Made by a program: the position numbers and the translations under genes. A DNA stretch of 64,000 bases, taken from the IMG/VR virus record IMGVR_UViG_3300006752_000009, one strand, 5' to 3'. Positions 523 to 60,261 of the stretch are shown here, piece by piece (within the stretch, counting starts at the first letter, position 1; every line of letters starts with the position of its first letter). The notes below the pieces were generated by a model. That model was not told the DNA's origin and did not search any database. It was given only the letters and a program-made list of their open reading frames with translations. This DNA is from a virus. Lineage: Duplodnaviria > Caudoviricetes.

Positions 523-561
523 ATAGGTCGCCCTTTCTATTGTTAGAAAAGTGCCACCTAT
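523..561 (-). promoter_or_regulatory. RBS-occluding hairpin in the leader of the C39 peptidase gene
   Basis: mRNA AUAGGU-GGCAC-UUUUCUA-acaa-UAGAAAG-GGCG-ACCUAU-u-AUG: two 6-bp stems enclose the SD. Confidence 0.6.
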
Positions 562-574
562 AAAGAGTTTACAA
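560..574 (-). promoter_or_regulatory. Class-2 (putative late) promoter motif TTGTAAACTCTTTAT
   Basis: Fits TA-N5-TTTAT; 38 nt upstream of ATG 521. Confidence 0.5.
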
Positions 575-592
575 ATCTAGTTTCTCTTAAAC

Positions 593-1318
593 TTATTGTT
601 CTTCCAAGTCAGCAGAATCTGTGTGGAGTATCGCATTAAAAATAGAGTCCTCGTCATACACACCATCTCTGTCCTGTTTGATAGACCTAATAGGAACAGT
701 AAGGTGGAATACAGTTCGCTCTGATTTCTCTTGGTCATCAGCTCGATCAATGTATTCAAGCTCCACATTTAGTTTCACATAAGTGCCTTCTACATCTGAG
801 CTTGATGGATCATCAAAGAACTCAACTTGATCTTCAACATCAACAGCGACATATTGTTTGAGGTCATCCCCATAAGACCCTAGCCATTCAAAGATTTGAG
901 TGTTTACATGATCTCGACCTCTACGGCCCAGCTCAACGAGAGCTTGAGGGGTTTCTCTCCTTCGGGCTGATCTTTCGAGTCTTGCGATCCGACCTTCAAG
1001 CTCATGGATAACATCAGACGCTCTGCGAGTCCTAATGCCACTGAGTCGATCTTCGAGTTCTTGCAGTTGTAAGGCATCAAGATTGACTCTTTGCTCTTGA
1101 GCTTCAAGCCCTTCAAGACGCTCTTGCTCTCGGATCAAAGGCTCAAAGTGCTGAATGTCAGCAATGAAGTCTCTGACCCTTCTGATTTCTTCTTCGACAT
1201 CTTCAAGATCAAGGCTCTTGATATAGCCGACATTAACTTTACTAGCATCGCCATCAAGTTGTTTGTACATTTTGATGAGATTATAGAGGTCGATTCTTTT
1301 ACCTGCGTTTCTTCGCAT
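593..1318 (-). CDS. Hypothetical coiled-coil protein, probable virion/head protein
   Basis: 241 aa, SD AGGAGA; heptad-rich middle region containing RRASDVIHELEGRIARLERSA. Confidence 0.7.
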   Translation of the reverse strand: MRRNAGKRIDLYNLIKMYKQLDGDASKVNVGYIKSLDLEDVEEEIRRVRDFIADIQHFEPLIREQERLEGLEAQEQRVNLDALQLQELEDRLSGIRTRRASDVIHELEGRIARLERSARRRETPQALVELGRRGRDHVNTQIFEWLGSYGDDLKQYVAVDVEDQVEFFDDPSSSDVEGTYVKLNVELEYIDRADDQEKSERTVFHLTVPIRSIKQDRDGVYDEDSIFNAILHTDSADLEEQ

Positions 1319-1329
1319 GATTATTCTCC

Positions 1330-1890
1330 TTAGTATTTGAGATCTAGTCCGAGTTTACCGTCAGTACTTGGAACTTTACAGCAGATACCTACGACAGTGG
1401 GGTCAACACCGAGAGCGGCGTTGAGGTTAGCATCGGGATCATTACACAACAATCCATTTTCGCTAACCTTGAGTGGGTCATTAAGGTTGTAGGTGATAGG
1501 ACCAGCGTTGCGTTGTCCATTGACAGCTAAGGCTGTTGTTTCAAACTCTTTGAAGAGTATCCTCGCTCCACCATTCACGAGAGTGAGTACAGCCGCTCCC
1601 GAAGCAGAAGCTAAAGCACCTGTGTTTTGATATGAGGTGAAGTTCCGATAAGTAGACTGTCTCGCTGAAGCGTAGTTCTCTGAACCGTACAAAACAAACC
1701 CTGCCACATATTTCCCATCAGATTTCTCTACAGTAAACTCGGACACCTTATCATCGTTAGGTACATAATAGACCCAAGTTCCACCCTTCCAACCTGTCCT
1801 ACGCATAATAGGACCTGCTGTGCAGGGAGTCTTGTCACCATTCTTTAAAACATCTATGTCATCATTCGTTAAGTTAAGATCAATAGACAC
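1330..1890 (-). CDS. Putative capsid decoration/cement-type protein
   Basis: 186 aa, GTG start with GGAGG SD; Gly-rich beta-type sequence ending VVGICCKVPS..LGLDL, resembling beta-tulip head decoration proteins. The function is inferred. Confidence 0.4.
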   Translation of the reverse strand: MSIDLNLTNDDIDVLKNGDKTPCTAGPIMRRTGWKGGTWVYYVPNDDKVSEFTVEKSDGKYVAGFVLYGSENYASARQSTYRNFTSYQNTGALASASGAAVLTLVNGGARILFKEFETTALAVNGQRNAGPITYNLNDPLKVSENGLLCNDPDANLNAALGVDPTVVGICCKVPSTDGKLGLDLKY

Positions 1891-2408
1891 TATGCCTTAC
1901 CTCCATTTTCTATCTCACCCTTTTGCTTCTTGTCTTGCAAAACATTTTGGACAGCCCTTGCCTTTTCTTTTTTAGAAAGGTGTCTCTCAACCACTTTTTC
2001 TACTAGACTCTTCTTCACTTCAGATTTGGTCTTATCTTTGGTGATAGGCTTGGATTTAGGTAATTCTTCACGACAGGTCGGCACACCCTTGATTTTTTCT
2101 TCGGTTTTAATGATAAACTGATTGAGTGTACTAAGTTCTTTACCACCAGGCTTCTTAACGATTTCTTCGGGTGGTGGTGGAGCGAGGACAGCTTCGCTTT
2201 CAATGAGCTTGTCGTCCTTCTTCATCTCACCCGATTGGATTGCTTTTTCGGCAGTGTCTACCTTGTTGGTTATTGCTTTTGACTCAGCAAGATTTCTAAC
2301 CGATCTCTTGGTCGGGTTGTCAAAGAAGGCAGACTCGGCAGATTGTGCTTTTTCAAGCTCTGCGACTCTTCTCATTAATGAGGCTATTCTGTATTTAAGG
2401 TTGCTCAT
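1890..2408 (-). CDS. Hypothetical Lys/Glu-rich protein (possible scaffold/head protein)
   Basis: 172 aa, SD AGGAG; N-terminus MSNLKYRIASLMRRVAELEKA; PPPP tract; highly charged. Confidence 0.65.
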   Translation of the reverse strand: MSNLKYRIASLMRRVAELEKAQSAESAFFDNPTKRSVRNLAESKAITNKVDTAEKAIQSGEMKKDDKLIESEAVLAPPPPEEIVKKPGGKELSTLNQFIIKTEEKIKGVPTCREELPKSKPITKDKTKSEVKKSLVEKVVERHLSKKEKARAVQNVLQDKKQKGEIENGGKA

Positions 2409-2442
2409 ACTAAACTCCTAAAGGTCTAGTATAGGCAACCTC

Positions 2443-2457
2443 ATAAATAAACTATTA
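2443..2457 (-). promoter_or_regulatory. Class-2 promoter motif TAATAGTTTATTTAT
   Basis: TA-N5-TTTAT, 34 nt upstream of ATG 2408. Confidence 0.6.
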
Positions 2458-4462: not shown

Positions 4463-4478
4463 ATAAGTAAGGGGTTAC
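4463..4478 (-). promoter_or_regulatory. Class-1 (putative early) promoter GTAACCCCTTACTTAT
   Basis: Invariant 11-mer, 24 nt upstream of ATG 4438. Confidence 0.75.
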
Positions 4479-5363: not shown

Positions 5364-5379
5364 ATAGATAAGGGGTTAC
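5364..5379 (-). promoter_or_regulatory. Class-1 promoter GTAACCCCTTATCTAT
   Basis: 43 nt upstream of ATG 5320. Confidence 0.8.
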
Positions 5380-5666: not shown

Positions 5667-5682
5667 ATAGATAAGGGGTTAC
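5667..5682 (-). promoter_or_regulatory. Class-1 promoter GTAACCCCTTATCTAT
   Basis: 55 nt upstream of ATG 5611; back-to-back with the copy at 5736. Confidence 0.8.
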
Positions 5683-5735: not shown

Positions 5736-5751
5736 GTAACCCCTTATCTAT
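5736..5751 (+). promoter_or_regulatory. Class-1 promoter GTAACCCCTTATCTAT
   Basis: 56 nt upstream of ATG 5808. Confidence 0.8.
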
Positions 5752-5954: not shown

Positions 5955-5970
5955 GTAACCCCTTAATCAT
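5955..5970 (+). promoter_or_regulatory. Class-1 promoter GTAACCCCTTAATCAT
   Basis: 53 nt upstream of ATG 6024. Confidence 0.75.
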
Positions 5971-6023
5971 ATAAGGGTGTAGGTACAGTGCTTACACCCC
6001 CCCACTCTAACAAGGAGATCAAT

Positions 6024-6743
6024 ATGAGTGCCGAGACAATCCTTTACATCATCTTAAGTCTGCTTCGTGCAGACAACGCAACGAACTTGGATACCCCTGT
6101 TGTTCACGACCACTTGGTCGAGGTGAGCCAAGCGATTGAAGCTCACGCTTCACGCACAGTACCAGCAGAGCGTCTTATAAGCCTTGCATACAATGAATCC
6201 CGCTTTGGGTATCGTCATATTCAAAGAGGGTCATTCCCGAAAAGCAGTTGGGGTGCTTGCGGTATATACCAACAAGTAGTGAAATATAGTAAGATCTCCA
6301 CTACCTGTAGGAAACTAGGGACAGATGTTGATCACGCTACCGAAGTCGCTGTTGCTTACCTTGACTACATGATTGATCGTTGGTCAATCCGAGGTAGTAG
6401 TCGTATGGACGAGCGTATGTGTCATTATTTCAGTGGTAATGACTGCGATGACAATAGAGATGGGGAGTTGAACCTTAAAGATGACGCTATGCAATACGCA
6501 TCACGACATCGTAAGATACGCTTAAAGGCTCTTAAAGCTCGTTCTAAGGCTCGTAGAGCTTCTACCTCTCGTAGAGCTAGAAACGCTCGTAGGATCACCA
6601 AAGAGAGCCTTTTCGCAGGTGTCTCAACTCGCAGAAAGACTCGACAAGAGATGACTCGTGAGGAGTGGCTACACGCTCTACGACATGAGCAAGATGAAGA
6701 TCGTAGACGAGAGCTTGCTCTCCCACCTCTAACCTTAGACTAA
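6024..6743 (+). CDS. Lytic transglycosylase (SLT/lysozyme-like) with Arg-rich C-terminal tail
   Basis: Start at ATG 6024 (SD AAGGAG); hydrophobic N-terminus; AYNESRF (catalytic E-S) and GACGIYQ (GAxGLMQ-like). Confidence 0.75.
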   Translation: MSAETILYIILSLLRADNATNLDTPVVHDHLVEVSQAIEAHASRTVPAERLISLAYNESRFGYRHIQRGSFPKSSWGACGIYQQVVKYSKISTTCRKLGTDVDHATEVAVAYLDYMIDRWSIRGSSRMDERMCHYFSGNDCDDNRDGELNLKDDAMQYASRHRKIRLKALKARSKARRASTSRRARNARRITKESLFAGVSTRRKTRQEMTREEWLHALRHEQDEDRRRELALPPLTLD

Positions 6744-6755
6744 GGGAGAGTAGAT

Positions 6756-7313
6756 ATGAGGTTCATGCAAGCATACGACTACTACGAGGTCTTAATGAAC
6801 TACACTTTGCCCTTTGCGTTAAATAAGAGCGACCTAGAGGAAGATGAGGTCTTAGACTACATACATGACTTTTACATCGACCTTCAAGATAATGAAGAGA
6901 GATGGGTAGATGGTGTTCGTCAAGGTACTTATGACCTTGAGAAGTTGAACCCTAAGAACATGAAGCCAATCATCACTAGGTTCTTCTTTCAGTATGTGAC
7001 GAGATCCAAGTACACAGAGGGTAAGTGGGTAGATAGGAGAGCATGGGGTCGCAGGACACAACAAGAACAAATCAAAGGGTGCGACCTTACACCACATCAC
7101 ATCCCACCACCAATGAGTTACGAGATGCACTTAAAGGGAGACTGTGAGCAGTTCATTCAATCGCTATCTCAAGATGAAGCTATAGTGTTAAATCAGCTTG
7201 TTCGTGAGAACAGCAAAAAAGATGTGAGTGGTACAGGTAAGTCAATTTCTAAGAACAAATACTATAAGGTATTTAAGAGTCTACAGACCAAAGCAAGAGA
7301 GCAGTTAATGTAA
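6756..7313 (+). CDS. Divergent sigma-like putative transcription factor, paralogue of 46395..47267
   Basis: Region-2-like DEVLDYIHDFYIDL and region-4-like IQSLSQDEAIVLNQL...HTH; shares FxQYVxRxKYxEG...GxRTQxE with 46395. Confidence 0.5.
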   Translation: MRFMQAYDYYEVLMNYTLPFALNKSDLEEDEVLDYIHDFYIDLQDNEERWVDGVRQGTYDLEKLNPKNMKPIITRFFFQYVTRSKYTEGKWVDRRAWGRRTQQEQIKGCDLTPHHIPPPMSYEMHLKGDCEQFIQSLSQDEAIVLNQLVRENSKKDVSGTGKSISKNKYYKVFKSLQTKAREQLM

Positions 7314-12265: not shown

Positions 12266-12281
12266 GTAACCCCTTATTTAT
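12266..12281 (+). promoter_or_regulatory. Class-1 promoter GTAACCCCTTATTTAT
   Basis: 25 nt upstream of ATG 12307, in a divergent intergenic region. Confidence 0.75.
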
Positions 12282-30589: not shown

Positions 30590-30623
30590 CCTCCATTTGA
30601 AGATATGGGGCTGACAATGGAGG
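30590..30623 (-). promoter_or_regulatory. RBS-occluding hairpin
   Basis: CCUCCAUU / AAUGGAGG, a perfect 8-bp stem containing the GGAGG SD. Confidence 0.65.
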
Positions 30624-30626
30624 GTT

Positions 30627-30641
30627 ATTTAAGACTTACAA
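30627..30641 (-). promoter_or_regulatory. Class-2 promoter variant TTGTAAGTCTTAAAT
   Basis: TA-N5-TAAAT variant, 3 nt before the hairpin 5' arm. Confidence 0.4.
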
Positions 30642-30664
30642 ATCTCCCACCCTCCTACCTTAAT

Positions 30665-31426: not shown

Positions 31427-31441
31427 ATAAATAAAGTATTA
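31427..31441 (-). promoter_or_regulatory. Class-2 promoter motif TAATACTTTATTTAT
   Basis: 45 nt upstream of ATG 31381. Confidence 0.6.
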
Positions 31442-40000: not shown

Positions 40001-40338
40001 GGTTTAGCTGTGTTTGAGTCTAAGCTAGAGATAACAATCAGTGTTAAAGAGGTCGTATTTGATCCATCCGTAGCTGAGATAAGGAAGCTGTTAGCTCCTT
40101 GATTTAAGTCAATCCCCTCTGAGGTATCGGGGTCTGGAAACACCCATGAACCATTACTAATAACGATGTCTGCGTCTACACCTACGGATGTAAACTCCTC
40201 ATCTAAGAATGACACTGTGATTTGGTCATACCCTTCAACAAGACCATGAATGAATACTTCTTCTTTGTCGGTTGAATAGCTAGTTGATGTTGTGGAGCTG
40301 ACCCCATCTGGCTTTACGATTTTTAAGCTATAACTCAT
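37066..40338 (-). CDS. Baseplate J-like (T4 gp6-type) wedge protein with N-terminal Ig/FN3 domains
   Basis: PPINIKAE..VLSW..YNVY (FN3-like); GSAIRDLFIDP, DRLASNLGIVR, ARGEATF, GNVTSGQIT, GGSTRETNQEL, GKVDIWV. Confidence 0.85.
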   Translation of the reverse strand: MSYSLKIVKPDGVSSTTSTSYSTDKEEVFIHGLVEGYDQITVSFLDEEFTSVGVDADIVISNGSWVFPDPDTSEGIDLNQGANSFLISATDGSNTTSLTLIVISSLDSNTAKPQPPINIKAERADNNVVLSWVHTDSEISFYNVYASTVSGGGNGYQQVNKIPIDPITYGFKSEKATPLVDFSSDIEAIEEDPNVLTIKALQNTTESDVGTQEIAESVARLRVATSVSSIELETKVSFRHNRTSPNSANTIEIGEFSSLNVNTPLYYVITAVKVVENQSVESAFSVEVGSAPINLQLINTTLPNVTDSQITESMISAIYDTDPTASVQAGSAIRDLFIDPVVSEVSRIRVLLDFCYKATNFVSLNDIDDPTGLGDSIFVSNSSYKQLLKEAYFLDTDTQVQNLIDICFDRLASNLGIVRLSGQVARGEATFFSRSLPTFDLIVPIGQLISSSGVRFRTVQAGTITVSEAPNFYNPITRRYEITLPIQADTAGLSGNVTSGQITTGAPLGLSVINNAPTFGGSTRETNQELMTRAMTYISSVDVGTRAGYERVARESAGVLGYEVIDADNPYMLRDNDQGGKVDIWVRGELLSRVTDVYAPSYKSRRDSRFIPIQSEGAYKFQASDATTENPLFQMIDRAGTFGLKNQTNGQFFDLTGATISEGKTLILDDTIPQPTYRMTDIILGDYRTDVTNKVVLDRQPVRQVISVRKADGTDLSYTFYKTEDPLVQGQSSKAQDYIIIDNDGLEKIISITAEQQTLNELYTETLSNRGIDITTIVAKDSNGNTFSSPLTSTTPDYVIEVNGDLTTIKRTTTSTITSGQTVFVDYEYLENITVTYQTNLVVSNLQLEVDEQKHMGADVLVKEVTPVRVNVKGLVYLEQGVSATSVDSIIKASLFNLITETTLGGNLYPSDFIRAIDSVRGVSYVSVPLTELSLTEGDQILREEVNPTVPIEITEFTSSSHKVWLMDVQLDHVPATSGGSNVRVFLNRTEIETLSLGQRENASNWIGVKGSIVGLEKAYISTNGVLTEIPNSARKLLISLPLGKTPLDYDIEVNYTCGNGTGVVGEIRLNNFSYFQVGDLSFTYEEERR

Positions 40339-41375
40339 GTCAAACTCCCATCTAATGAAATGCTACCTGGTACTTCAAAAACTATATTTACGCTTACTTG
40401 ACGGTTAGCACCACTACGAACTACGACATTACACAATAATGCAGTCGCATTGTCATTGAGTGCTGAAACCTCCACAGATTGAACGCTCATTAATCTTTCT
40501 TCTTGGCTGAGGTATTGTACCCTCTTGAGGTCTTGTTGCATTTTCTGCAACTTATCTAGTGCTTGTTGAACGCTCATCCTTAATGCGACACCTACCGAAG
40601 CATTGTTCTTTTGACCGATGAGTCGGTTAGCATTTGATCCATACCAAGCGTGATATGGGTTAGATCCGATCTCTGTAAGTAGAGTCTTAGCTATATTCTG
40701 ATATAGAAGGTCTGTATCTTGTACCTTTTTAATGTCTCCATCTGTGCCGAACCTAAAGTCGTTCTCTACTCCTGTTCCTCCACATCGCCTACAGTATCGC
40801 TTTTCGGTCGTGTAAGAGATTTCTAGTAGCCCCTCTGGTTCTAGTTCACTCTTGAACTGTATGTCGTGTCCGTTGAGTCGTGAAACCAGCCCCCAAGAAG
40901 GTGTGGTCTTTTTGGTCTTAGCGACTTGCTTTTGCCTCTTGAAACCTAGTGCTTTTAAAAGACTTCCTGTGAGGGTGAACCCAACCCCAAGTTTTTGGTC
41001 TGAAAACCTCAACGCTTTTGATGTAGTCTCTTCAACAAGGATAGCTCCGATTTGGTTTTGTATTACGGAGATGAGTGTCTTTGAGTTGTATATCTTTGGG
41101 GGTAAAGTGATTGTGTTGGAGAACCCTTCCGTAGTGGTGATTGTAAGCACATTAGATGTGCTTCTCACCCTAAAGGGAGACACATTAGGAGTGGTGATAG
41201 TAGCCTCTCGGTTATTGCCTTGAGGTTCAAGGACGACACCATCTCGTTTAATCACTACAAGTCCAGCACCATTGATCGGTGATGCTGGCATAATGTAGAT
41301 ACCATTTTGTAGCCCAACCCTCTCATATCGAATATAATGAGGGCAAGAATAAGAAATCTGTAGGTCTTCGCTCAT
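40335..41375 (-). CDS. Baseplate wedge gp25/GPW-like protein with N-terminal extension
   Basis: C-terminal DLLYQNIAKTLLTEIGSNPYHAWYGS..LIG; CRRCGG zinc motif. Confidence 0.75.
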   Translation of the reverse strand: MSEDLQISYSCPHYIRYERVGLQNGIYIMPASPINGAGLVVIKRDGVVLEPQGNNREATITTPNVSPFRVRSTSNVLTITTTEGFSNTITLPPKIYNSKTLISVIQNQIGAILVEETTSKALRFSDQKLGVGFTLTGSLLKALGFKRQKQVAKTKKTTPSWGLVSRLNGHDIQFKSELEPEGLLEISYTTEKRYCRRCGGTGVENDFRFGTDGDIKKVQDTDLLYQNIAKTLLTEIGSNPYHAWYGSNANRLIGQKNNASVGVALRMSVQQALDKLQKMQQDLKRVQYLSQEERLMSVQSVEVSALNDNATALLCNVVVRSGANRQVSVNIVFEVPGSISLDGSLT

Positions 41376-41376
41376 G

Positions 41377-41422
41377 TTATCACCAGTAGTCTAGTGGTTA
41401 TTTACTAGACTACCGATGATAA
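41377..41422 (-). promoter_or_regulatory. 19-bp RBS-occluding hairpin
   Basis: UUAUCAUCGGUAGUCUAGU / ACUAGACUACUGGUGAUAA; 17 Watson-Crick pairs plus 2 G-U pairs that form only on the minus strand; ends 1 nt before AUG 41375. Confidence 0.8.
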
Positions 41423-41433
41423 ATAAACTAACG
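41419..41433 (-). promoter_or_regulatory. Class-2 promoter motif CGTTAGTTTATTTAT
   Basis: Part of a 19-bp sequence (41419-41437) identical to 43811-43829. Confidence 0.65.
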
Positions 41434-43767: not shown

Positions 43768-43806
43768 ATATCTCTCTCTCTTTCCGATAGTTTACAAGAG
43801 AGATAT
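43768..43806 (-). promoter_or_regulatory. RBS-occluding hairpin
   Basis: AUAUCUCUCU / AGAGAGAUAU, a perfect 10-bp stem ending 2 nt before AUG 43765. Confidence 0.7.
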
Positions 43807-43810
43807 GAAT

Positions 43811-43825
43811 ATAAATAAACTAACG
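43811..43825 (-). promoter_or_regulatory. Class-2 promoter motif CGTTAGTTTATTTAT
   Basis: 45 nt upstream of ATG 43765. Confidence 0.65.
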
Positions 43826-46265: not shown

Positions 46266-46280
46266 ATAAACGAACTATAA
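46266..46280 (-). promoter_or_regulatory. Class-2 promoter motif TTATAGTTCGTTTAT
   Basis: 48 nt upstream of ATG 46217. Confidence 0.55.
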
Positions 46281-47667: not shown

Positions 47668-48036
47668 CTACGGTCTTAAGCCTAAATCTAACAGGGTCTT
47701 GTAAACGACTTTATTGACTTCTTTAAGGTCATCAGTCTTTTTAATGACCCGACCATTGACCTCTACGATTAAGTTTTTGTAGTCATATCCAGATCCACTG
47801 CTAGTGAAACCACTGATAGAAATCTTAGTCTTTGAGGCTTCAACTTTGATAACCTTCTCTCCCTTTCGGTCGAGGACACTAGTTACTTTGTGTTGCCCTT
47901 TCTTGAACATCCACTGTAGCTGTTTCTCAAATCGGCTGAGATCTTGCCACCCAATGTGGTTACTTAGTAGTCCAAAGAGCTTTGCTTCCATGTACCTAGA
48001 AGCGACTCTTTTACTAGAATTTTGATTACTCATCAT
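47668..48036 (-). CDS. Hypothetical protein with RVASRY leader
   Basis: MMSNQNSSKRVASRYMEAKLFGLLS; 122 aa. Confidence 0.7.
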   Translation of the reverse strand: MMSNQNSSKRVASRYMEAKLFGLLSNHIGWQDLSRFEKQLQWMFKKGQHKVTSVLDRKGEKVIKVEASKTKISISGFTSSGSGYDYKNLIVEVNGRVIKKTDDLKEVNKVVYKTLLDLGLRP

Positions 48037-48586
48037 CTGCCTCTTTCTTAGGTTCGGGTGTATCTTCTACACCTAGTGATTTCTTGACCTTTGCTTTGAA
48101 CATCTTGATTACGAACGCATTGATTGCACCAGCACAAGCACCCATATACACATCAATCATCATAAATGGCTTTGATAAGGTATAGGCGATCCCTGCTCCT
48201 GTTAGGACTGCAAAGAGTCTTATTACAGCGTCTGATTTCTCATTGCAGGTTTTGAAGATGAAAGGCTTAATGATCTGAGTCAGAGCGAGACTCAAGATAG
48301 CCGCTACCACTACAAGATAAGCATGACCTACAAAGACATCTTGCATCGTTGGTCTAGTTTCTGATTTCAAATCAATCGACTCTGCTATGTGTTTACAGGA
48401 AACACCACTTTCAGTGATCTCACATTCTTGGTTTTCTGATCCACACAGAAGTTCATTCCCCTCGATGATTTCGCAGAGGTCAGCTCCTTCTTCCCCTTTA
48501 CTACAGAGGATTGTATGAAGATCAACGAACTGACAGTTATCTGGTAGATTAACTAGTGGCTCACTTATTGGGATATACTTTTCCAT
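48026..48586 (-). CDS. Putative holin (3 TM helices) with a Cys-repeat N-terminal domain
   Basis: TMs AYLVVVAAILSLALTQII, IRLFAVLTGAGIAYTL, VYMGACAGAINAFVI; charged C-terminal tail; Cys at 18, 28, 38, 48, 55, 64. Confidence 0.55.
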   Translation of the reverse strand: MEKYIPISEPLVNLPDNCQFVDLHTILCSKGEEGADLCEIIEGNELLCGSENQECEITESGVSCKHIAESIDLKSETRPTMQDVFVGHAYLVVVAAILSLALTQIIKPFIFKTCNEKSDAVIRLFAVLTGAGIAYTLSKPFMMIDVYMGACAGAINAFVIKMFKAKVKKSLGVEDTPEPKKEADDE

Positions 48587-48593
48587 GTTTTTA

Positions 48594-48622
48594 CCTCGCT
48601 TCGATTTTTCAATAAAGCGAGG
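48594..48622 (-). promoter_or_regulatory. RBS-occluding hairpin on the holin-like gene
   Basis: CCUCGCUU / AAGCGAGG, a perfect 8-bp stem containing the GAGG SD. Confidence 0.7.
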
Positions 48623-48624
48623 CG

Positions 48625-48639
48625 ATAAAGAAACTATTA
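48625..48639 (-). promoter_or_regulatory. Class-2 promoter motif TAATAGTTTCTTTAT
   Basis: 2 nt before the hairpin 5' arm; 38 nt upstream of ATG 48586. Confidence 0.6.
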
Positions 48640-48646: not shown

Positions 48647-49180
48647 TTACAAATGAGGGGTTCTGTCTATTACGATGACATCACCCTCTGAGTGATACTT
48701 TTTAGCGAATGACTTCCATACCCTTAGAGCCTTATCAGAGGTAGACTTTTTGTGGCAGTAGTTAGGCATGAACAGCAAAGGCAACCTACCATGTTTAAGG
48801 AACACTTCTTTGACCACCTCAACATACATTTGAACTCCACACCTCTGGCCTTGTAGGTCTGGGTGGAGATAAGAATTGACAACCTCTACAACAAGAACCA
48901 CAGGTTCATCTTTACTGCTATCATATCGAAACATCTCGTCCTCAAACCAATACTCTTCGGATAACTTTTCAATGTCATCTGCACAAGCAAAGTGTCCTCT
49001 ACCCATCTCCTCAAGAGTGTAAGTGCCTACATGGGCTTCACAGTGTCCTCTGTATTCACCATCGACTCTTAACTCAACACTAACTTTACCACCATCGCTA
49101 GACACAACTTCGATAGTGATGTTGCCCTTTTGGTATTTAGCTTTCATGTAGCGACTAGCGACTCTTTGATAAGGCTTCAT
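48647..49180 (-). CDS. GNAT-fold (acetyltransferase-like) protein with RVASRY leader
   Basis: MKPYQRVASRYMKA; YLHPDLQGQRCGVQMY is GNAT motif-A-like; TSDKALRVWKSF. Confidence 0.5.
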   Translation of the reverse strand: MKPYQRVASRYMKAKYQKGNITIEVVSSDGGKVSVELRVDGEYRGHCEAHVGTYTLEEMGRGHFACADDIEKLSEEYWFEDEMFRYDSSKDEPVVLVVEVVNSYLHPDLQGQRCGVQMYVEVVKEVFLKHGRLPLLFMPNYCHKKSTSDKALRVWKSFAKKYHSEGDVIVIDRTPHL

Positions 49181-50082
49181 ACTGGTTGTCCCTGTTCGTT
49201 TACTAAACCTTTAGTGTAGAGGGCATATAACTGTATGCCAACAGCAGGAACTAAGATAGCGTTCCAACCGATTGATAGAGACTTAGCGAGCCAACCACCA
49301 GGTATGCCTGGGAATAAAAGACTTACGATAAATCCAATCCCACTTTCGGGTAGACTTTCAAGTAAGTCCGTCCACGAGATCATGCCTAGAAATCCTTTTA
49401 TCAAGTCTGAGATCTTCCAACTGATCTCTGTAACATTGATCCATATGACCCAATAGAGATATGCTTTAGCAGGCATCGTAATGAGCTTCAGCAAAGGGTG
49501 CTTCTCTAAAAAGTTATCTATCCATTCCGACATATTTTTTGCTCTGCCGACCACAGGTGTGATCGTCTTTGACAACCATTTACCTAGTTCACCTGTCTTT
49601 CCTCCATGCTTTTCAAGTACGCTTTCAATAATGGAAGTGAAGGTAGGAGCGTTAGATGCGTATAGGAACAGAAAGTGAATGATCTTACTGTCTTTCTTCA
49701 TCTTCTTCTTTAGATTACCCCACCATCTCGCACCCTCGTCTAAGAGGTTTTGAAACTTCTTCGATAGTTCAAAGTAGAGCTTTGCAGGGTTCGTTGATGT
49801 GATCCCTAAAACCTCTTTGAACTTTTCCCAAAGTTTAGGAGCTTTTTGAAACGCTTGGTACAGCTCTCTTAGCTTCTTACCTAGACCTTTGATGATCGCT
49901 GTTTTGTTGTGAGCTTGTCGGAGCATACCCTCGCCAAACACGCTCAATACTCGGACATCTATCTCACGAGTGATTGTGCTTGAGACTCTAGTGTTGGGGC
50001 TGTTTTGGATCGCCCACATTGACGCTCTTAATGAAACATTTCTATGGTAATGTCGAGTAGCGACTCTCTGATATGGCTTCAT
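49177..50082 (-). CDS. Hypothetical helical protein with RVATRH leader and hydrophobic C-terminus
   Basis: MKPYQRVATRHY...LRQAHNKTA; C-terminal GIGFIVSLLFPGIPGGWLA. Confidence 0.7.
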   Translation of the reverse strand: MKPYQRVATRHYHRNVSLRASMWAIQNSPNTRVSSTITREIDVRVLSVFGEGMLRQAHNKTAIIKGLGKKLRELYQAFQKAPKLWEKFKEVLGITSTNPAKLYFELSKKFQNLLDEGARWWGNLKKKMKKDSKIIHFLFLYASNAPTFTSIIESVLEKHGGKTGELGKWLSKTITPVVGRAKNMSEWIDNFLEKHPLLKLITMPAKAYLYWVIWINVTEISWKISDLIKGFLGMISWTDLLESLPESGIGFIVSLLFPGIPGGWLAKSLSIGWNAILVPAVGIQLYALYTKGLVNEQGQPV

Positions 50083-50117: not shown

Positions 50118-50132
50118 ATAAATAAGTTATTG
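50118..50132 (-). promoter_or_regulatory. Class-2 promoter motif CAATAACTTATTTAT
   Basis: 35 nt upstream of ATG 50082. Confidence 0.55.
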
Positions 50133-50523: not shown

Positions 50524-51621
50524 TCACCAGACTTGAAAGTGAACACCTAAAGACCAAGTGTTCGACCCATCAGTTCCGTAAACCCAACCAATACCAGGAG
50601 CGATGTTGAGGTTTTTACCCATGATGTAAGGATGCCATGTACCCATCAATCCTAGATACTGATTGGACTCGGTTAGAGAAAAGTTAGCACCTAAACGATA
50701 CTGACCTTTAACAAAGTTGACGAAACTCCCCCCTATAGATAGCCCAAACTCCCCCCCTTGATAAGTTGACCCTACAAGTAAGCTCGGCTCGAACATCTTT
50801 AGCGTTAACCCTAAACCACCTGCGGGTACTTGGGGTATATAGATGAGTTGAGGATCAAGATTGGGATCACCAGAATACATTTCGGACTCAAGACCCTCTA
50901 TATTAATAAACTTTCCTTGATCATCAAAGTACCCACCATAAATGTGTATGCCTTGGTTCTGTACAGCACCACTACCTAAACGAGATTGGTCTTCGCCATA
51001 ACTAATCGCTACTACTTTAAACGCTAAGTTGAAGTCTACACCCGAACCTTCACCAGTCCAAAGATTTCTACTTGTAAACGAGTAAACAGGTTTACCATGT
51101 AAACGGAAAGGTGATTCCCATGTAAACTTGAAAGGTTGACACCTTTCGTCTGTTCGGTTCTCACACCACTGTTGATCTTGTGTACTTACACCTCTCCAAT
51201 CTTGAGGTGGTGGGGTTGTGGGTTTTTCTCTGTCTGTGAAGTCTCCGATGCGTGTTACACCTGCTTCTACCCTTGACTCCATACGAACAAATCTTCGACT
51301 AATCGCATTGATTTTCGCTCCTGTCTCAGAGGTGTATCTGTCTATAGCCTGTTGTGTTCTTTGATCAAGACCACTAATGATTTCTGACGCTCTTTGTTCA
51401 AGCGTAGCTCGATCAACCATCTGAGACTGCACAGTTCCTAGTTTGGTATTTATCGCCGCAATTTTCGTAGCGTTATCATTAAGAACTCCATTTAGCTGAT
51501 CTTGGATCGTAGCGTCCATCTGTTGCATTTTGTAGACAGACCAAGCGTTGCCCCCTACAGAAACCAAGAACAGGCTCAATAGAGCGTAAATACCATATTT
51601 TAGGTTCGCCAACTCAACCAT
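50524..51621 (-). CDS. Envelope-spanning protein: N-terminal TM, coiled coil, C-terminal amphipathic beta-strands (spanin-like)
   Basis: YGIYALLSLFLVSVGGNAW; heptads at about aa 30-125; about six alternating beta-strands ending WSLGVHFQVW. Confidence 0.55.
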   Translation of the reverse strand: MVELANLKYGIYALLSLFLVSVGGNAWSVYKMQQMDATIQDQLNGVLNDNATKIAAINTKLGTVQSQMVDRATLEQRASEIISGLDQRTQQAIDRYTSETGAKINAISRRFVRMESRVEAGVTRIGDFTDREKPTTPPPQDWRGVSTQDQQWCENRTDERCQPFKFTWESPFRLHGKPVYSFTSRNLWTGEGSGVDFNLAFKVVAISYGEDQSRLGSGAVQNQGIHIYGGYFDDQGKFINIEGLESEMYSGDPNLDPQLIYIPQVPAGGLGLTLKMFEPSLLVGSTYQGGEFGLSIGGSFVNFVKGQYRLGANFSLTESNQYLGLMGTWHPYIMGKNLNIAPGIGWVYGTDGSNTWSLGVHFQVW

Positions 51622-51654
51622 AGTAAATCTCCTTCGTTTAGATGGAGATACTAT
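51620..51654 (-). promoter_or_regulatory. RBS/start-occluding hairpin
   Basis: AUAGU-AUCUCC ... GGAGAU-uu-ACUAU(G): buries GGAG and the AU of AUG. Confidence 0.6.
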
Positions 51655-52880: not shown

Positions 52881-52896
52881 ATAAATAAGGGGTTAC
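52881..52896 (-). promoter_or_regulatory. Class-1 promoter GTAACCCCTTATTTAT
   Basis: 45 nt upstream of ATG 52835. Confidence 0.8.
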
Positions 52897-52956
52897 GCTT
52901 TGCCTTTTCTCATATAATAAGAGGATGCAAGCTGTACTTATAAGGAGGTGCGACAT

Positions 52957-55686
52957 ATGTTTGCCGATATGCTTGAGTCATTAAGACGACCAAATATACA
53001 ACCCAAGTTGTGGATGAAAGATTGCGAGTTAATCTTAGGCACAAAGGAAAACCTAGACCAATGTATTGATGAGTGTATCAACAGCGTTGCGTATGGGCTT
53101 GACCTTGAGACAACAGGTCTTGATAATCGTGTGTTCAACGGACGCACAAGAGATACGATTGTAGGGGTCTGCTTGTCAGCCCATAAGGATAAGGGGTACT
53201 ATTTCCCTGTTGGTCATCAAGAGGGTGTGGAACATAACATTCCTTGGAGATTGATGTATCCTGCACTTGAGCGTCTGCTTGACCTCTCTGTGAAAGCAGA
53301 GCCTATATTCCACAACGCCGCTTTTGACCAAGAGTTTTTGGAGTTCAACGAGTACAAGTCGGGTCTTGGTGAGGAGCGTTGGGACTCATTTGAATGGCAC
53401 GACACCTATATCATTCAGTATCTCTTGAACCCTCGTGAAAAAGGTGGTCGAGGACTAAAGCATTTAACTAATGCCCACCTTGAGCGAGAGATGATTGAGC
53501 TATCAGATCTTATGCCCGATGCTCCCGACAAGAACTACTCCAAACTTGATGTGAGTTGGGAACCATGTGTTTGGTATGCCGCTAGTGATGCAATGTGTAC
53601 GCTTGGACTATGGGAAGTACTTTATAAGAAGTACACCGAAGCTAAAGAACACACTAACTCGATGTATAAGTTAGAGCGTATGTGTCTACTTTCAACTCGT
53701 TGGATGCACAGAAATCGTGTCTACATTGATCGAGACACAGCCTTAAAGTATAGCCAACAGGGGCAGAAGCTATGGTTCGACTCTCTGATTGATGTCTATG
53801 ATGGAGCAAAAGAAATCTTAGGTCGAGACATTACCCCTAACTATGTTCGAGTCCTTAAAGGAGATCTGAAGGGAGAAAACAAGTTTAACCACATGGAAGT
53901 GGAGGGGATGAGCTATAAGACTCGTGTAGACGAAGCTCGTAAAGAAGCCTCTCGACTTTACCCCGATGAAAAGGGAGTAGTCACTAAGGCTGTGAAGATT
54001 ATCGGTAAGAGTGTAGGTACAGAGGAGATTGAGTTTCCACTTACTTATGACATCCTATCCCCTCAAAAGCTCGGCTTGTTATTTAGAGAGTTGAGTGTTC
54101 CAGGTCTTAAGGCGAGTGAAAAATCGGGTCAGGTCGTTACTTCCAAAGACATTCTTGAAGAGGTCATTGAGAAGGCTTCTGATGACTTTCCATTTATGGC
54201 TAAGGTTAAGACCTTTCGTGAGCTTGGGAAGGCAATGGGTCAGTATCTCATTCCATTTGTAGAAGATGTTGGACCAGATGGGACTCTCAAGCCTAAGTTT
54301 GATCAGTTTGCCGCTGACACAGGTCGTTTTTCATGTAAGACGAATAGTAAGCCTTGGAAAGTTAAAGATGGAGGGTGTCGTGTTCCCTTTCAAGGCATAC
54401 CTGCTACCTATGACCCAAATAAACCCGAAGCTGTTGCTAAGATGCGTTCTTGTGTGGCTGTGCGTGATGACGATTGGTGGTTAGCGGCCATTGATTACGC
54501 AGGTGTAGAGCTTCGGCTAGTTACGAACTTGAGTCTTGAGCCTAAGTGGATCAAGGCTTTCTTTGAATGTTCAGAATGTGGCACAGCTTACCCACAAGAA
54601 ATTCAAGAAGACGGATTCGCCAAAGCACCTCCATCTAACTGCGTGAACTGTGGGTCTGATAAGATTGGAGACTTACATACGATCACAGCAGTTGCGTTTT
54701 ATGGCGAGGGAGCTAAGAAGCGTGATGATTGGAAAGCGTTAAGAGGTAATGGTAAGGGTTGCAACTTTGCTTTGTCTTATGGTGGTACAGGTAAGGCTGT
54801 TCAGCGTACTATTGGTTGTTCAGCCGAAGAAGCAGATGAGAAGTTCAAGAAGTTTACATCAACTTATAGTGAACTGACTAAATGGTGGTCTAAGCAACAC
54901 AACTTTGGTCGTAAGCATGGATATGTAAAGACAGGTATGGGTCGTGTTCAACCATTACCCGACATCAAGTCTGATGACTTTAGGTTTAAATCCAAAGATG
55001 AGCGTAAGGCTGTTAATGGTCCAGTACAGGGTACGAGTGCTGATGTCACCAAGTTGGCGATGAGCTTCATCTACCAAGAGACTAAGAAGCGTGGTTGGCA
55101 AGATAAACTGATGATGATCTTGACCGTCCATGACGAAATCGTGTTCGAGATCCATAAGTCGATCTTGAAAGAGGCGATTGATATGATCTCCGAGATGATG
55201 ACTCGCAACAAAGTGATTAAGCGTCTAGGTTGGCGAGTGCCTTTACTTGTCGATGTTGAGCTTGGTAAGGATTGGACTGTTCCTTTTGATGTGAAAGATG
55301 TGATTGCAGGAGAAGCAGGGGATAAGGTCATTAACGCTAAGTACAAGTGCAAGGATTGTGGTGAAAAGACTCCTCGTGACCCTAAACCGACTGCGTGTAT
55401 GCACTGTGGTTCGACTAACATTAAAATTGATTACAAAGATGACTTCATTGCCAAGATCAAGAAGCAGACGGAACAACTTTATGCCGACTATGGGGTAAAT
55501 CCCGATGAAGTTGTCAAAGAGGTGGTTGTAGAAGACCCTGTTGAGAAATCGTCCGATAAGCCCACCTTTTGTGTTGAGGGACTGACGGAAGAAATCGCAA
55601 AAAACCTGTCCGATTGGATTAAATCGCAAGATGGTGAGTATGATGTGGTATATGAAGGACGGAGTATTATTGCATTATTAGAATGA
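52957..55686 (+). CDS. polA: Family A DNA polymerase with 3'-5' exonuclease and two zinc ribbons
   Basis: Start at ATG 52957 (AAGGAGG); Exo I DLETTG, Exo II HNAAFD, Exo III YAASDA; TGRFS; motif A IDYAGVELR, motif B RGNGKGCNFALSYG, motif C VHDEIVFE. Confidence 0.95.
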   Translation: MFADMLESLRRPNIQPKLWMKDCELILGTKENLDQCIDECINSVAYGLDLETTGLDNRVFNGRTRDTIVGVCLSAHKDKGYYFPVGHQEGVEHNIPWRLMYPALERLLDLSVKAEPIFHNAAFDQEFLEFNEYKSGLGEERWDSFEWHDTYIIQYLLNPREKGGRGLKHLTNAHLEREMIELSDLMPDAPDKNYSKLDVSWEPCVWYAASDAMCTLGLWEVLYKKYTEAKEHTNSMYKLERMCLLSTRWMHRNRVYIDRDTALKYSQQGQKLWFDSLIDVYDGAKEILGRDITPNYVRVLKGDLKGENKFNHMEVEGMSYKTRVDEARKEASRLYPDEKGVVTKAVKIIGKSVGTEEIEFPLTYDILSPQKLGLLFRELSVPGLKASEKSGQVVTSKDILEEVIEKASDDFPFMAKVKTFRELGKAMGQYLIPFVEDVGPDGTLKPKFDQFAADTGRFSCKTNSKPWKVKDGGCRVPFQGIPATYDPNKPEAVAKMRSCVAVRDDDWWLAAIDYAGVELRLVTNLSLEPKWIKAFFECSECGTAYPQEIQEDGFAKAPPSNCVNCGSDKIGDLHTITAVAFYGEGAKKRDDWKALRGNGKGCNFALSYGGTGKAVQRTIGCSAEEADEKFKKFTSTYSELTKWWSKQHNFGRKHGYVKTGMGRVQPLPDIKSDDFRFKSKDERKAVNGPVQGTSADVTKLAMSFIYQETKKRGWQDKLMMILTVHDEIVFEIHKSILKEAIDMISEMMTRNKVIKRLGWRVPLLVDVELGKDWTVPFDVKDVIAGEAGDKVINAKYKCKDCGEKTPRDPKPTACMHCGSTNIKIDYKDDFIAKIKKQTEQLYADYGVNPDEVVKEVVVEDPVEKSSDKPTFCVEGLTEEIAKNLSDWIKSQDGEYDVVYEGRSIIALLE

Positions 55687-57106: not shown

Positions 57107-57122
57107 ACACACACACACACAC
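57107..57122 (+). repeat. (AC)8 dinucleotide tract
   Basis: acacacacacacacac directly before the SD (AGAAAGGA) of ORF 57139. Confidence 0.9.
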
Positions 57123-57138
57123 AGAAAGGACATGACCT

Positions 57139-57447
57139 ATGTCTAACTTAAAAGGCGATCTAGCCCCTAAGCCAAATAAGACACCTTATGAGCTTCGGCT
57201 TGAGATTTTACATCTCGCTCAACACATCGTTGAAGACAATGTTGAAAAACAAATTCAGTATATGCACTCACAAGGCGACATTGCAGGTAGCTTTTATGAT
57301 CGTCATGAAGATACGATTGGTGTAGCTGCCGCTGAGTTGATTGCCTCAGCGAAAGAAAACATTGAGGGTTTGAAAATGCCCCCAATGGGGGTTGACGAAG
57401 TTTTGAGTATTGCGAAAAAGTTAAATAACTTTGTCTCCAATGGGTGA
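57139..57447 (+). CDS. Conserved phage hypothetical protein
   Basis: KTPYELRLEIL..A and DEVLSIAKKLNNFV motifs, recalled from marine T4-like phage proteins. Confidence 0.6.
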   Translation: MSNLKGDLAPKPNKTPYELRLEILHLAQHIVEDNVEKQIQYMHSQGDIAGSFYDRHEDTIGVAAAELIASAKENIEGLKMPPMGVDEVLSIAKKLNNFVSNG

Positions 57448-57484: not shown

Positions 57485-57526
57485 GAAACCCTCGATTGCC
57501 CCAGTGGTGGTCGGGGGTTTTTCTTT
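57485..57526 (+). terminator. Rho-independent terminator
   Basis: GAAACCCTCGATT...GGTCGGGGGTTTTTCTTT, a stem with G-U pairs and a U tail, between convergent genes. Confidence 0.75.
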
Positions 57527-57881
57527 AGAGGTCGCAGAACTGACCCCACCAATCAGTATAGGTGACTTTGACCACATTAGATTTCTCGATGTGCCTTCGG
57601 CAATACTTACAAGGTCGAGCCATTGTCATCGTACCGTCTTTGAGAAATCTAATGACCTCAAGGCGATCTCCTTTTTGAGTATGCCTAAGAGCATCCATTT
57701 CAGCGTGTAGGTTGGAAACGAGAGTTCCGTCTTTAACCCTCCGAGCAAACCTTAAGTCTGTCTTGCTTGAGTTTACACCGATGTAAACAGGCTTCTTTTT
57801 TCTGAATACAATACAAGCGACATGGTACTTTTCACCATTAGACAATGCCATTCTCATAGCTTGTTTATAAATGCGTTTCAT
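57525..57881 (-). CDS. Zinc-dependent cytidine/dCMP deaminase-fold protein
   Basis: HVACIV..IGVNS, LHAEMDAL (HAE), ARPCKYC (PCxxC). Confidence 0.88.
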   Translation of the reverse strand: MKRIYKQAMRMALSNGEKYHVACIVFRKKKPVYIGVNSSKTDLRFARRVKDGTLVSNLHAEMDALRHTQKGDRLEVIRFLKDGTMTMARPCKYCRRHIEKSNVVKVTYTDWWGQFCDL

Positions 57882-58379: not shown

Positions 58380-58390
58380 CGCATTTCCTT

Positions 58391-58711: not shown

Positions 58712-59164
58712 TTAATGCACCAGACAGTCTACTTCAAAATCGTACCCCAAGAAAGAGGGTACAATCTGATGTGGGTCTGTTAACAGTGAAGGTTCTGATT
58801 GAAAATCTATGTCCGATAGAAATCCCTCGAACCCTTCTCCTTTAAAGTAAGACATCCCAAAAATTGACTGTTCTCCACTCCTGCTATCTTCAATCAAGCA
58901 CCAAAAAACGAAACCTATACTTTTTTCTTCTTCGTACATTTTTTGATGTGCTATAAAAGACCAAAATTCAGGATTAACATCTTGCAGGATTTCTGGTAAA
59001 GAGAATCCGAGCATAACTTTATTATGAAGTAAATCATCACCTGTCATAATAGACAAATGAGGAGGTAAAGTAGATACATCAAGACCGTAATCTCTAGCAC
59101 CCGTTACCGTTGTGCTTATCATGTTATAGGCTTCGTTATGAAAGTCAAAAGGGGAAATGTTCAT
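58712..59164 (-). CDS. Hypothetical acidic protein
   Basis: Start moved to ATG 59164; 150 aa. Confidence 0.55.
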   Translation of the reverse strand: MNISPFDFHNEAYNMISTTVTGARDYGLDVSTLPPHLSIMTGDDLLHNKVMLGFSLPEILQDVNPEFWSFIAHQKMYEEEKSIGFVFWCLIEDSRSGEQSIFGMSYFKGEGFEGFLSDIDFQSEPSLLTDPHQIVPSFLGYDFEVDCLVH

Positions 59165-59417
59165 GTCAACTCCATTAAGATCTGCTAGGTCTATCCAACA
59201 AAAACTCCTCACAAGCAAGGAAGCTATCAGATCAGTTATTTCTTATTGTACTTATAGAAAAGACGATAGGGTATGCTCCGATAAAGATTTAGCGAAAAAA
59301 CTCAAGCAAGTAGATCGAGAGATTGGTAGATTACTAGAGTATGTTCAATCCTTAGAGGGTCAAACTCGAAGAACACTGCGAGAAGAACGACTTAAAAAAG
59401 AAAGAGAGAATAGATAA
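59157..59417 (+). CDS. Hypothetical basic coiled-coil protein
   Basis: 86 aa; stop/start overlap with the FmdB-like gene; start uncertain. Confidence 0.5.
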   Translation: MFMSTPLRSARSIQQKLLTSKEAIRSVISYCTYRKDDRVCSDKDLAKKLKQVDREIGRLLEYVQSLEGQTRRTLREERLKKERENR

Positions 59418-59599
59418 TGCCTACTTATAACTACAGATGCAAAAACGAAGAGTGTAAACATGAGTTTCAAGCGATGCACAAGATGAGCGACCCACCACCC
59501 CCATGCCCTAAATGTAGTGGTGAACAGGTTGAGAAGCTGATAAAGGGTATGAACTTTGTCTTAAAAGGTAGTGGATGGTTCAATTCTGGTGGATACTGA
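59417..59599 (+). CDS. FmdB-family zinc-ribbon protein
   Basis: MPTYNYRC...C.HEF...CPKC...KLI..FVLKGSGWF. Confidence 0.9.
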   Translation: MPTYNYRCKNEECKHEFQAMHKMSDPPPPCPKCSGEQVEKLIKGMNFVLKGSGWFNSGGY

Positions 59600-59879
59600 T
59601 CTGCTTAAGTCTCTTGTCAACCATCCCAAATGGGTATGGCAAATGGGCCTGCTAGGTTTCCCCTACTTTAAACCGACACAGAGGGTTAGGAAGATAGGAG
59701 TTGGGGATGACTCTTGGCTTCCTGCTTTAGATGATCCTGTGACTCTCGGCTACTTACACCACCTGTATGTAATCAATAATGGGTCTGTAAGGCGAGATGG
59801 TGAGCTATGGGTAAGCTCACATGGGGTTGAGGGAAAAGACTTAGCAGATGTGCTTGTAGAGTCTTTCCTCAAACTTTAA
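59571..59879 (+). CDS. Conserved phage hypothetical protein
   Basis: HPKWVWQMG and LPALDDPVTLGYL resemble the PDLxDPATLG motif of phage hypotheticals. Confidence 0.55.
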   Translation: MDGSILVDTDLLKSLVNHPKWVWQMGLLGFPYFKPTQRVRKIGVGDDSWLPALDDPVTLGYLHHLYVINNGSVRRDGELWVSSHGVEGKDLADVLVESFLKL

Positions 59880-59883
59880 TAGT

Positions 59884-60210
59884 TTAAAATCTAGGTTCTC
59901 TACCTCGACACCACTTAGACTGTTCCTCTGTCCAATAGAGCCTAGCCTTACCACGCTTCTTCTTTAGAGCCATTTCAGCTTTCATGGCTTCTGATCTGTT
60001 AGCGTATGGACCATAGGTACACATTAACACCCAAGGTCGGTGCTTTGATGTGTACTTAGCACCACCTTTGATTTCTCCCTGGTGCTGTCTCAGCCTACGG
60101 TTAACATCTGTAGTGCAACCCACATAGAAAAAACCTGGTAGTTGTTTACCTGTCTTAGCTGATCTTCTCATCTGCTGACTCTGAATAACATATACGACCC
60201 ATTCGCTCAT
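59884..60210 (-). CDS. GIY-YIG nuclease, SLX1-like
   Basis: Start moved to ATG 60210; VVYVIQS..FYVGCTTDVNRRLRQHQGEIKGGAKYT..RPW..EAMKAE. Confidence 0.88.
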   Translation of the reverse strand: MSEWVVYVIQSQQMRRSAKTGKQLPGFFYVGCTTDVNRRLRQHQGEIKGGAKYTSKHRPWVLMCTYGPYANRSEAMKAEMALKKKRGKARLYWTEEQSKWCRGREPRF

Positions 60211-60225
60211 TTGTAGTTCCTTTAT
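60211..60225 (+). promoter_or_regulatory. Class-2 promoter motif TTGTAGTTCCTTTAT
   Basis: 36 nt upstream of ATG 60262; followed by a 6-bp CTTTAG/CTAAAG stem (60232-60256) overlapping the SD. Confidence 0.55.
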
Positions 60226-60261
60226 ACACTGCTTTAGGTGATCTATTATACTAAAGGAAAT

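Follow-up and report, generated by a model that had tools for sequence, protein, structure and literature searches.

We analysed a 64,000-nucleotide (nt) stretch of DNA, hereafter the window, from the IMG/VR virus record IMGVR_UViG_3300006752_000009, a virus of the Caudoviricetes, in which a recurrent promoter-like sequence, here called the late-class motif, stands before genes whose Shine-Dalgarno (SD) sequence is in part of the cases buried in a hairpin. The minus strand carries most of the genes of the window. The gene content includes a Baseplate_J protein, a gp25-like baseplate wedge protein and a family A DNA polymerase (Table 1), together with other tail-type proteins and giant proteins that span 1,090 to 2,038 amino acids (aa). 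A phage database search with the window gave no nucleotide match and no match for a structural protein, and the DNA polymerase alone matched, at 46%, an unannotated 485-kb uncultured phage. Relatives were taken from IMG/VR. The near relative (G001; 375,691 bp, rated complete) is collinear with the window at 82-92% nucleotide identity, and the distant relative (G002; 296,642 bp) has a baseplate protein that is 42% identical. Two metatranscriptome runs yielded five short intragenic contigs without 5'-end information.

Two classes of promoter-like motifs

The initial annotation of the window had listed ten late-type promoter motifs of the form TA-N5-TTTAT, and all ten exist, with 34-48 nt between the end of the motif and the ATG. 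The site given as 60211 is present, but its coordinates are 60214-60225 on the plus strand, and the site at 30627 does carry a TAAAT variant, but its status as a promoter is doubtful; the gene behind this variant begins at ATG 30584 and not at TTG 30617. By count alone, the loose pattern was not enriched in the window (18 matches, compared to 11.4±3.6 in shuffles). Eight of these matches are intragenic chance matches, and an eleventh loose match, at 57857 (+), sits within a minus-strand gene and is probably due to chance. The tight form TAGTTNNTTTAT occurs in 6 exact copies in the window, where about 0.3 would be expected from base composition, and all of these lie 34-48 nt upstream of gene starts. 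In G001 the same form has 48 exact copies versus 0 for the reversed control. Around 80 motif sites in G001 precede an SD and an open reading frame (ORF), and the logo of eighty of them reads TTwrTAGTTTnTTTAT, 16-17 nt, followed by A at +1 in 55% (positions are counted from the end of the motif). The two halves of the motif are interdependent, as N+T(T/C)TAT follows 42 of 52 upstream TAGTT[TC] sequences.

The late-class motif precedes baseplate, tail and lysin genes and small tagged genes for virion cargo; according to PHROG annotation, 20 genes with the motif were mostly orphans. The motif is most economically read as a promoter on the basis of its position, gene class and conservation, and because 30 of the 71 late sites in G001 lie in short divergent intergenic regions that hold no other conserved element. 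It thus behaves like the late-type promoter that had been claimed, specific for the class of virion, tail and lysis genes. A further late element, (G/A)TA(A/G)G at +9/+10, was present in 31 of 71 leaders and in 41 of 319 controls, but it had been chosen post hoc; its excess comes partly from paralogous cassette leaders, with no sharp peak after their removal, and it was rejected. A plus-strand motif before 50146 (+), which has a 15-nt leader, was considered as a bound on the start site and was dropped as well, as it is merely the reverse complement of the minus-strand motif and is absent in other lineages.

The second motif, GTAACCCCTTATCTAT, precedes the DNA polymerase and neighbouring genes. 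Its class has the form GTAACCCCTTATCTATA, then a conserved CCTAGTGT, and ten copies of (T)TGTAACCCCTTATCTATA were located in the window (Table 1). In the relative, (T)TGTAACCCCTTATCTATA continues into CCTAGTGT, and +8..+10 read T-R-T (R in 89%). A distance of 16 nt separates TTGTAA from TAGTGT in this class, and the two resemble a -35/-10 pair around a conserved spacer. Apart from the DNA polymerase, this class sits before other non-structural genes, and its leaders rarely have a buried SD. An RNase E-type processing site was ruled out as a reading of the late-class motif, given the 30 divergent sites and the fact that the two motif classes track gene class.

Hairpins over the SD in the window

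Each leader was folded from the motif end to the ATG, and z-scores were determined against dinucleotide shuffles. At least six hairpins that bury the SD behind a motif had been proposed. In our analysis five of the ten motif leaders were significant, namely those of the genes starting at 521, 30584, 41375, 43765 and 48586, but the leader at 60262 was weak. A z-score below -2 was thus found in 5/10 motif leaders compared to 3/40 other leaders of the window (Mann-Whitney p=0.003), and overall the motif leaders were more structured and had a less accessible SD than these 40 (p=0.002-0.003). With explicit SD positions, the unpaired probability of the SD was at most 0.04 in all six leaders on RNA that arrives from upstream (read-through RNA). 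The leaders at 2408, 31381, 46217 and 50082 had no significant fold z-score and no lock on the SD. The 5' arms begin at -4 to +7 relative to the motif end, which agrees with the adjoining position, 0-6 nt from the motif, described earlier for most of them.

The helix before the baseplate wedge gene has a core of 15 bp, which becomes 19 bp with the TTAT of the motif and 25 bp when most of the motif pairs to the AUG region; the 19-bp hairpin with two G-U pairs that had been annotated at 41377-41422 proved correct. Strand-specific G-U pairing was seen in single cases, but the sense and antisense folds of 32 G001 leaders with a buried SD were equally stable. For the leader at 521 the unpaired probability of the SD was 0.00 both on read-through RNA and on RNA from +1, and 0.25 from +8. 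At 48586, where the sequence complementary to the SD (anti-SD) lies at +3..+6 after the motif, it was 0.01 and rose to 0.54 from +8, and the SD at 60262, which pairs with the motif's own TTCCTTTA, was unpaired at 0.02 on read-through RNA and at 0.36 from +1. A seventh hairpin, proposed at 51620-51654, is real but comes without a late-class motif.

Genes 41435-43765 and 43827-46217 are paralogues which each begin with MNI and each have a late-class motif, and there is a hairpin over the SD before one copy and none before the other. As the near relative has a single copy, the tandem duplication is recent. Between two paralogous tail-type genes, a three-part alternative structure was found at 30619-30655, where GGAGGGT stands just past the upstream stop codon. 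A strong hairpin without a late-class motif (6715-6753; -17.5 kcal/mol, z -3.4) spans the stop codon of gene 5988-6743 and the SD of gene 6756-7313, and looks like translational coupling. Additionally, the minus-strand ORF 57525-57881 has a zinc motif like that of cytidine/deoxycytidylate deaminases (HAE...PCxxC), and a short (CA)n run at 57107-57125 lies inside the leader of gene 57139-57447.

Table 1. Motifs, leader hairpins and selected genes located in the window; z-scores are from the leader folds.
Feature	Position	Strand	Remarks
Late-class motif TAAACTCTTTAT	560..571	-	38 nt upstream of ATG at 521
Late-class motif TAGTTTATTTAT	2443..2454	-	Upstream of gene 1890-2408; SD free, AUG paired
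Variant motif TAAGTCTTAAAT	30627..30638	-	Doubtful promoter
Late-class motif TACTTTATTTAT	31427..31438	-	Upstream of gene 30665-31381; without lock
Late-class motif TAGTTTATTTAT	41419..41430	-	Upstream of baseplate wedge gene 40335-41375
Late-class motif	43811..43822	-	Upstream of gene 41435-43765
Late-class motif TAGTTCGTTTAT	46266..46277	-	Upstream of gene 43827-46217, divergent intergenic region; without lock
Late-class motif TAGTTTCTTTAT	48625..48636	-	Upstream of gene 48026-48586
Late-class motif TAACTTATTTAT	50118..50129	-	Upstream of gene 49177-50082; without significant lock
Late-class motif TAGTTCCTTTAT	60214..60225	+	Own TTCCTTTA complementary to downstream SD TAAAGGAA
Hairpin over SD (AAGGG) of gene 3-521	523..561	-	z -5.9; starts in the last bases of the motif; kept in G001
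8-bp hairpin CCTCCATT/AATGGAGG over SD of gene 29943-30584	30590..30623	-	z -3.0
Hairpin over SD (GGTG) and AUG of gene 40335-41375	41367..41428	-	z -6.8 to -8.0
11-bp hairpin over purine-rich SD region of gene 41435-43765	43768..43806	-	z -2.2 to -2.4
Hairpin over SD (GAGGT) of gene 48026-48586	48593..48623	-	z -4.9 to -5.1
6-bp hairpin CTTTAG/CTAAAG before gene 60262-60717	60232..60256	+	Weak; z -1.4
SD hairpin ATCTCC/GGAGAT before gene 50524-51621	51620..51654	-	z -3.65; kept in relatives
Second-class motif (T)TGTAACCCCTTATCTATA	4471-4477, 5372-5378, 5675-5681, 52889-52895, 62933-62939	-	
Second-class motif (T)TGTAACCCCTTATCTATA	5737-5743, 5956-5962, 12267-12273, 63155-63161, 63797-63803	+	
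Baseplate_J protein	37066-40338		
gp25-like baseplate wedge protein	40335-41375	-	
Family A DNA polymerase	52948-55686		

Coupling of motif and lock across genomes

Genes of the relatives were taken from a simple gene caller, and SD accessibility was expressed as the unpaired probability, averaged over the bases complementary to the 16S tail, in a -50 to +6 context. An SD was counted as buried, and its leader as locked, at an unpaired probability below 0.2. In G001 a buried SD was found in 45% of 71 late leaders (32/71), in comparison to 10% of 51 second-class leaders and 15% of 292 others (p=1.3e-7). Without 16 paralogous cassette leaders the values were 22/55 (40%) and 49/343 (14%), with an odds ratio of 4 and p=3e-5. 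Similarly, 32% of 59 late leaders in G002 (19/59) had a buried SD, compared to 19% of 249 (p=3.6e-5). T4 served as calibration and gave 9/28 (32%) for late leaders versus 21/170 (12%) (p=0.02), a proportionate excess comparable to that in the relatives. Most locked leaders have stems of 6-13 bp and loops of 10-38 nt. The coupling of motif and lock is therefore real and clade-wide. It is statistically significant in the window and in the genomes of the two relatives, but the earlier term systematic goes too far, as only a third to half of the late units are covered.

The approximately 16 paralogous cassette leaders of G001 include those at 95373, 95861, 142391, 145240, 280874, 314171 and 365934. 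They share either the module TTCTCCATTGG...AATGGAGAA or TCTCATAAGT...ACTTATGAGA, so that their 5' arm is paired either to the SD or to the start codon. A sequence similar to the second promoter class, TAACCCTTAACC, is present in their loops. In G001, a gene for an HNH-type homing endonuclease (L018:5723-6664; G001 65723) has a late-class motif and a buried SD (unpaired probability 0.07), and recalls I-TevI of T4.

Co-evolution of the arms in the baseplate leader

Leaders of the baseplate wedge gene were gathered from more than 20 lineages, with protein identities from 94% to 42%. The motif is kept in these leaders and is accompanied by a helix of 9-22 bp, the stem sequences of which are unrelated between lineages. 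In 9 of 12 lineages +1 is the first position of this helix; its other end is 1-9 nt short of the ATG, and the SD is part of the 3' arm. RNAalifold on a MAFFT alignment of the leaders found no structure; the leaders could not be aligned in this way because the stem lengths differ, and for that reason arms were swapped between lineages instead. The native leaders had a mean of -20.0 kcal/mol, whereas the chimeras had -7.2±3.6 kcal/mol. This is strong evidence that the two arms co-evolve and that the helix is kept by selection, and the covariation check suggested in the initial annotation thereby came out positive over deep divergence. In AT-rich lineages at 36-38% identity the hairpin of the baseplate leader was absent.

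The loop GTGAGAnAnnAT is conserved on entirely different stems in L043, L046, L047, L049, L051, L054, L061, L063, L067 and L078. It was not enriched elsewhere in the genomes and is specific to the baseplate leader, where it may be a protein-binding site. A promoter within the hairpin loop was also considered, as GTGAGAnAnnAT contains a -10-like hexamer, but a baseplate-specific sequence that is not enriched genome-wide is no general element, and this candidate was rejected.

Which RNA carries the full structure

In G001 and G002 together, 35 of 137 leaders have a stem of at least 4 bp whose first base is exactly at +1, compared to 16 in shuffles. Helices starting at this position extend into the motif, with an A(-2):U pair in 80% versus 26% in the null. 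The averaged pairing profile places the zone of the 5' arm at approximately -10 to +11, and the motif abuts this arm or overlaps it by 2-10 nt. Eight motif bases are paired in L048 and 5-7 in L063 and L067, while the read-through RNA at 41375 forms its 25-bp helix with 10/12 motif bases and the AUG (-32 kcal/mol, z -7.6). Because such helices include bases of the motif, the full structure would, if the motif is a promoter, be present only on RNA arriving from upstream.

Removal of the 7-8 nt after the motif from the 32 locked leaders of G001 raised the median SD accessibility from 0.16 to 0.45-0.48, in line with a background of about 0.42 in the genome. No SD begins upstream of +15, and a transcription start anywhere from +8 to +14 would therefore open the leaders with every SD intact.

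Discussion

The best reading of these results, which we put forward tentatively, is a T4-like switch in which only RNA from a gene's own promoter is translated. A clade of giant phages from marine environments would use TTwrTAGTTTnTTTAT(a) as its late-class promoter. In a third to half of the cases, the first 10-12 nt past the motif would be complementary to the SD region of the gene that follows 27-60 nt downstream, and sometimes also to its AUG, with the last bases of the motif itself taking part in some cases. On RNA arriving from upstream a stable hairpin would block ribosome binding. RNA from the promoter itself would have its first nucleotide within the 5' arm or shortly after it, around +7 to +10, and would be translated, as it would lack the anti-SD. 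Each late unit would in this way be shielded from read-through, as is the case for T4 genes e, soc, 49 and I-TevI. The promoter function of the motif, the start site in the arm and the existence of read-through RNA are all inferred. The initial annotation had suggested such a two-key switch, generalised over morphogenesis and lysis genes; the promoter class, the coupling of motif and SD hairpin, the covariation and the motif bases in the helix all speak for it, but its systematic use does not hold.

In T4, late transcription of e and I-TevI yields RNA from which the 5' part of the inhibitory structure is missing (PMC3014915, PMC2988022), and the structure before e cuts translation 100-fold (PMC3014915). 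T4 genes e, soc, 49, I-TevI/II/III and segB, as well as Aeh1 mobE, likewise have a stable helix over the SD and/or AUG of a late-expressed gene. As here, an AT-rich late promoter is found at or in the 5' arm of these hairpins, and the helix pairs promoter bases with the spacer and the AUG. In T4 gene 49, which we folded, the 5' arm has the promoter at its base and the anti-SD right behind it, which is the layout found in the present leaders. What is new relative to T4 is a different promoter (TAGTTTnTTTAT here versus TATAAATA in T4), longer leaders (27-60 nt versus 12-25 nt), a 5' arm that lies mostly downstream of the motif, so that a start site 7-10 nt past the motif would be needed for release, and many more units, about 20-30 per genome compared to a handful of T4 genes embedded in early units. 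Unlike in T4, the locked units include baseplate and head-cargo genes and even units without a same-strand gene upstream.

Several observations weigh against the T4-like switch. At least half of the late leaders lack a lock. Where no same-strand gene lies upstream, locks are nearly as frequent, with 18 of 44 leaders locked after a strand switch, and the frequency of locks is only weakly linked to a same-strand gene upstream (54% for co-directional and 33% for divergent leaders, p=0.10). The sole position-specific pyrimidine-purine step in the late class is at +1 (A/G in 69-74%, after an invariant T), and positions +4 to +9 are purine-poor; from a start at +1 or -2 the whole hairpin would be kept in promoter-started RNA. 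A start at +8 would not remove the anti-SD from every leader, since in some, such as L051, L078 and G002 204959, it occupies +8 to +14. From +8 the window leaders 521, 30584 and 41375 reach an SD accessibility of only about 0.25. The anti-SD of the 30584 leader, ACCCTCC, moreover has a competing upstream partner, GGAGGGT at 30649-30655, and this site with its TAAAT variant does not fit the simple model cleanly.

The transcription machinery counts among these points as well. A gp55-like factor, homologous to that of T4, a sigma-70-like factor, a beta or beta' subunit and a phage RNA polymerase were not detected in the genomes of the relatives. Searches of the relatives with the Pfam models RNA_pol, Sigma70_r2, Rpb2_6 and Rpb1_2 gave nothing, the T7-type model having been run without a positive control, and phrog_234, phrog_12791 and Sigma70_r2 had no match in the genomes of three relatives. 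G001 encodes a 3,049-aa protein (L031:3166-12312) and several others of more than 1,300 aa, all without a Pfam match, and Pfam scans of its five largest unassigned proteins gave nothing. An N4-type virion RNA polymerase may be among these large proteins.

It is possible, although on balance unlikely, that late mRNAs are instead born locked. Transcription would then start at the 3' edge of the motif (A at -2 or +1), and the hairpin, as the exact 5' end, would protect that end and hold translation off or low until opened. Such RNA would need an unlocking factor, which could be an RNA-binding activator or helicase of the phage (compare Com on Mu mom) or a gene-specific protein that reads the loop. 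The T|A step at +1, which is also seen in the other promoter class, is in line with this, as are the excess of stems that start exactly there, the enrichment of pairing into the motif, which is clear only for its last two bases, and a lock frequency nearly independent of upstream context. The conserved baseplate loop on differing, co-varying stems resembles a translational operator, and the MS2 coat protein operator and the target of Mu Com on mom mRNA also hold the start region in a hairpin. Unlike such operators, the loops of the other leaders share nothing, so that a general activator would have no common loop or sequence to read, and the stems are far more stable than the MS2 operator. Stabilising stem-loops as in the ompA and T7 gene 10 leaders also have their stem within 0-5 nt of a possible RNA start, but they leave the ribosome site free, whereas the SD forms the 3' arm of the locked leaders. 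Conserved structural genes would hardly be translated behind SD hairpins of -15 to -30 kcal/mol, given that the far weaker structure before T4 e already has a 100-fold effect (PMC3014915), and no candidate activator was identified. A helix that runs 4-10 bases into the motif, as in window leader 41375, L048 and L063/L067, would be impossible from a start at -2 or +1. Distinctly unlikely, in our estimate, is the wider scenario of global translational licensing, in which late mRNAs started at the motif edge are locked and a phage factor or processing step unlocks dozens of unrelated ones, as a layer added to late transcription.

In phage T7, RNase III sites accompany several promoters, and processing of this kind activates some T7 and lambda genes at the level of translation. 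The long helices could accordingly be RNase III-type processing sites placed after promoters, where cleavage would give read-through RNA and RNA from the promoter the same end and thereby free or destroy the ribosome site. The hairpins do lie directly downstream of a phage promoter between genes as in the T7 modules, and the longest of them have the length of an RNase III substrate (25 bp in window leader 41375, 18 bp in L047, 21 bp in L048 and 22 bp in L067), with weak A-U pairs that extend the helices into the motif beyond the need of a lock. Helices of around 20 bp are however restricted to these few leaders, and most stems, with 6-13 bp and their loops of 10-38 nt, are too short for the enzyme. 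In T7 the sites are helices of about 20 bp, made of two parts with an internal loop, and the ribosome site usually lies outside them. Processing also leaves unexplained why the 3' arm is nearly always the SD; we consider this reading very improbable. Less probable by far is that the pairing is a by-product, either of a pyrimidine-rich promoter stretch that complements any purine-rich SD or of chance hairpins. The logo is pyrimidine-rich at +4 to +9, the loose motif alone is not enriched in the window, and T4 shows a similar excess on the same crude metric. However, the complementarity reaches past the SD core into gene-specific flanks, the anti-SD is found at positions between -1 and +14, z-scores of the folds are as low as -5 to -8, and the co-variation of the arms in the swap test contradicts a by-product. 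A palindrome or cruciform acting at the DNA level was ruled out in view of the variable arms and loop sizes and of the constant involvement of the SD.

If the T4-like switch is true, hiding the ribosome site on RNA of foreign origin is not confined to a few T4 genes. Very large, terminator-poor phage genomes could then insulate dozens of late units, with expression set by each unit's own promoter. If late RNAs are born locked, a new global step of translational activation must exist. For this uncultured clade, two classes of promoters and some 130 natural pairs of promoter and leader, with stems that co-vary, are now at hand, and are useful for annotation, for predictions of timing and as test cases for RNA-based insulation.

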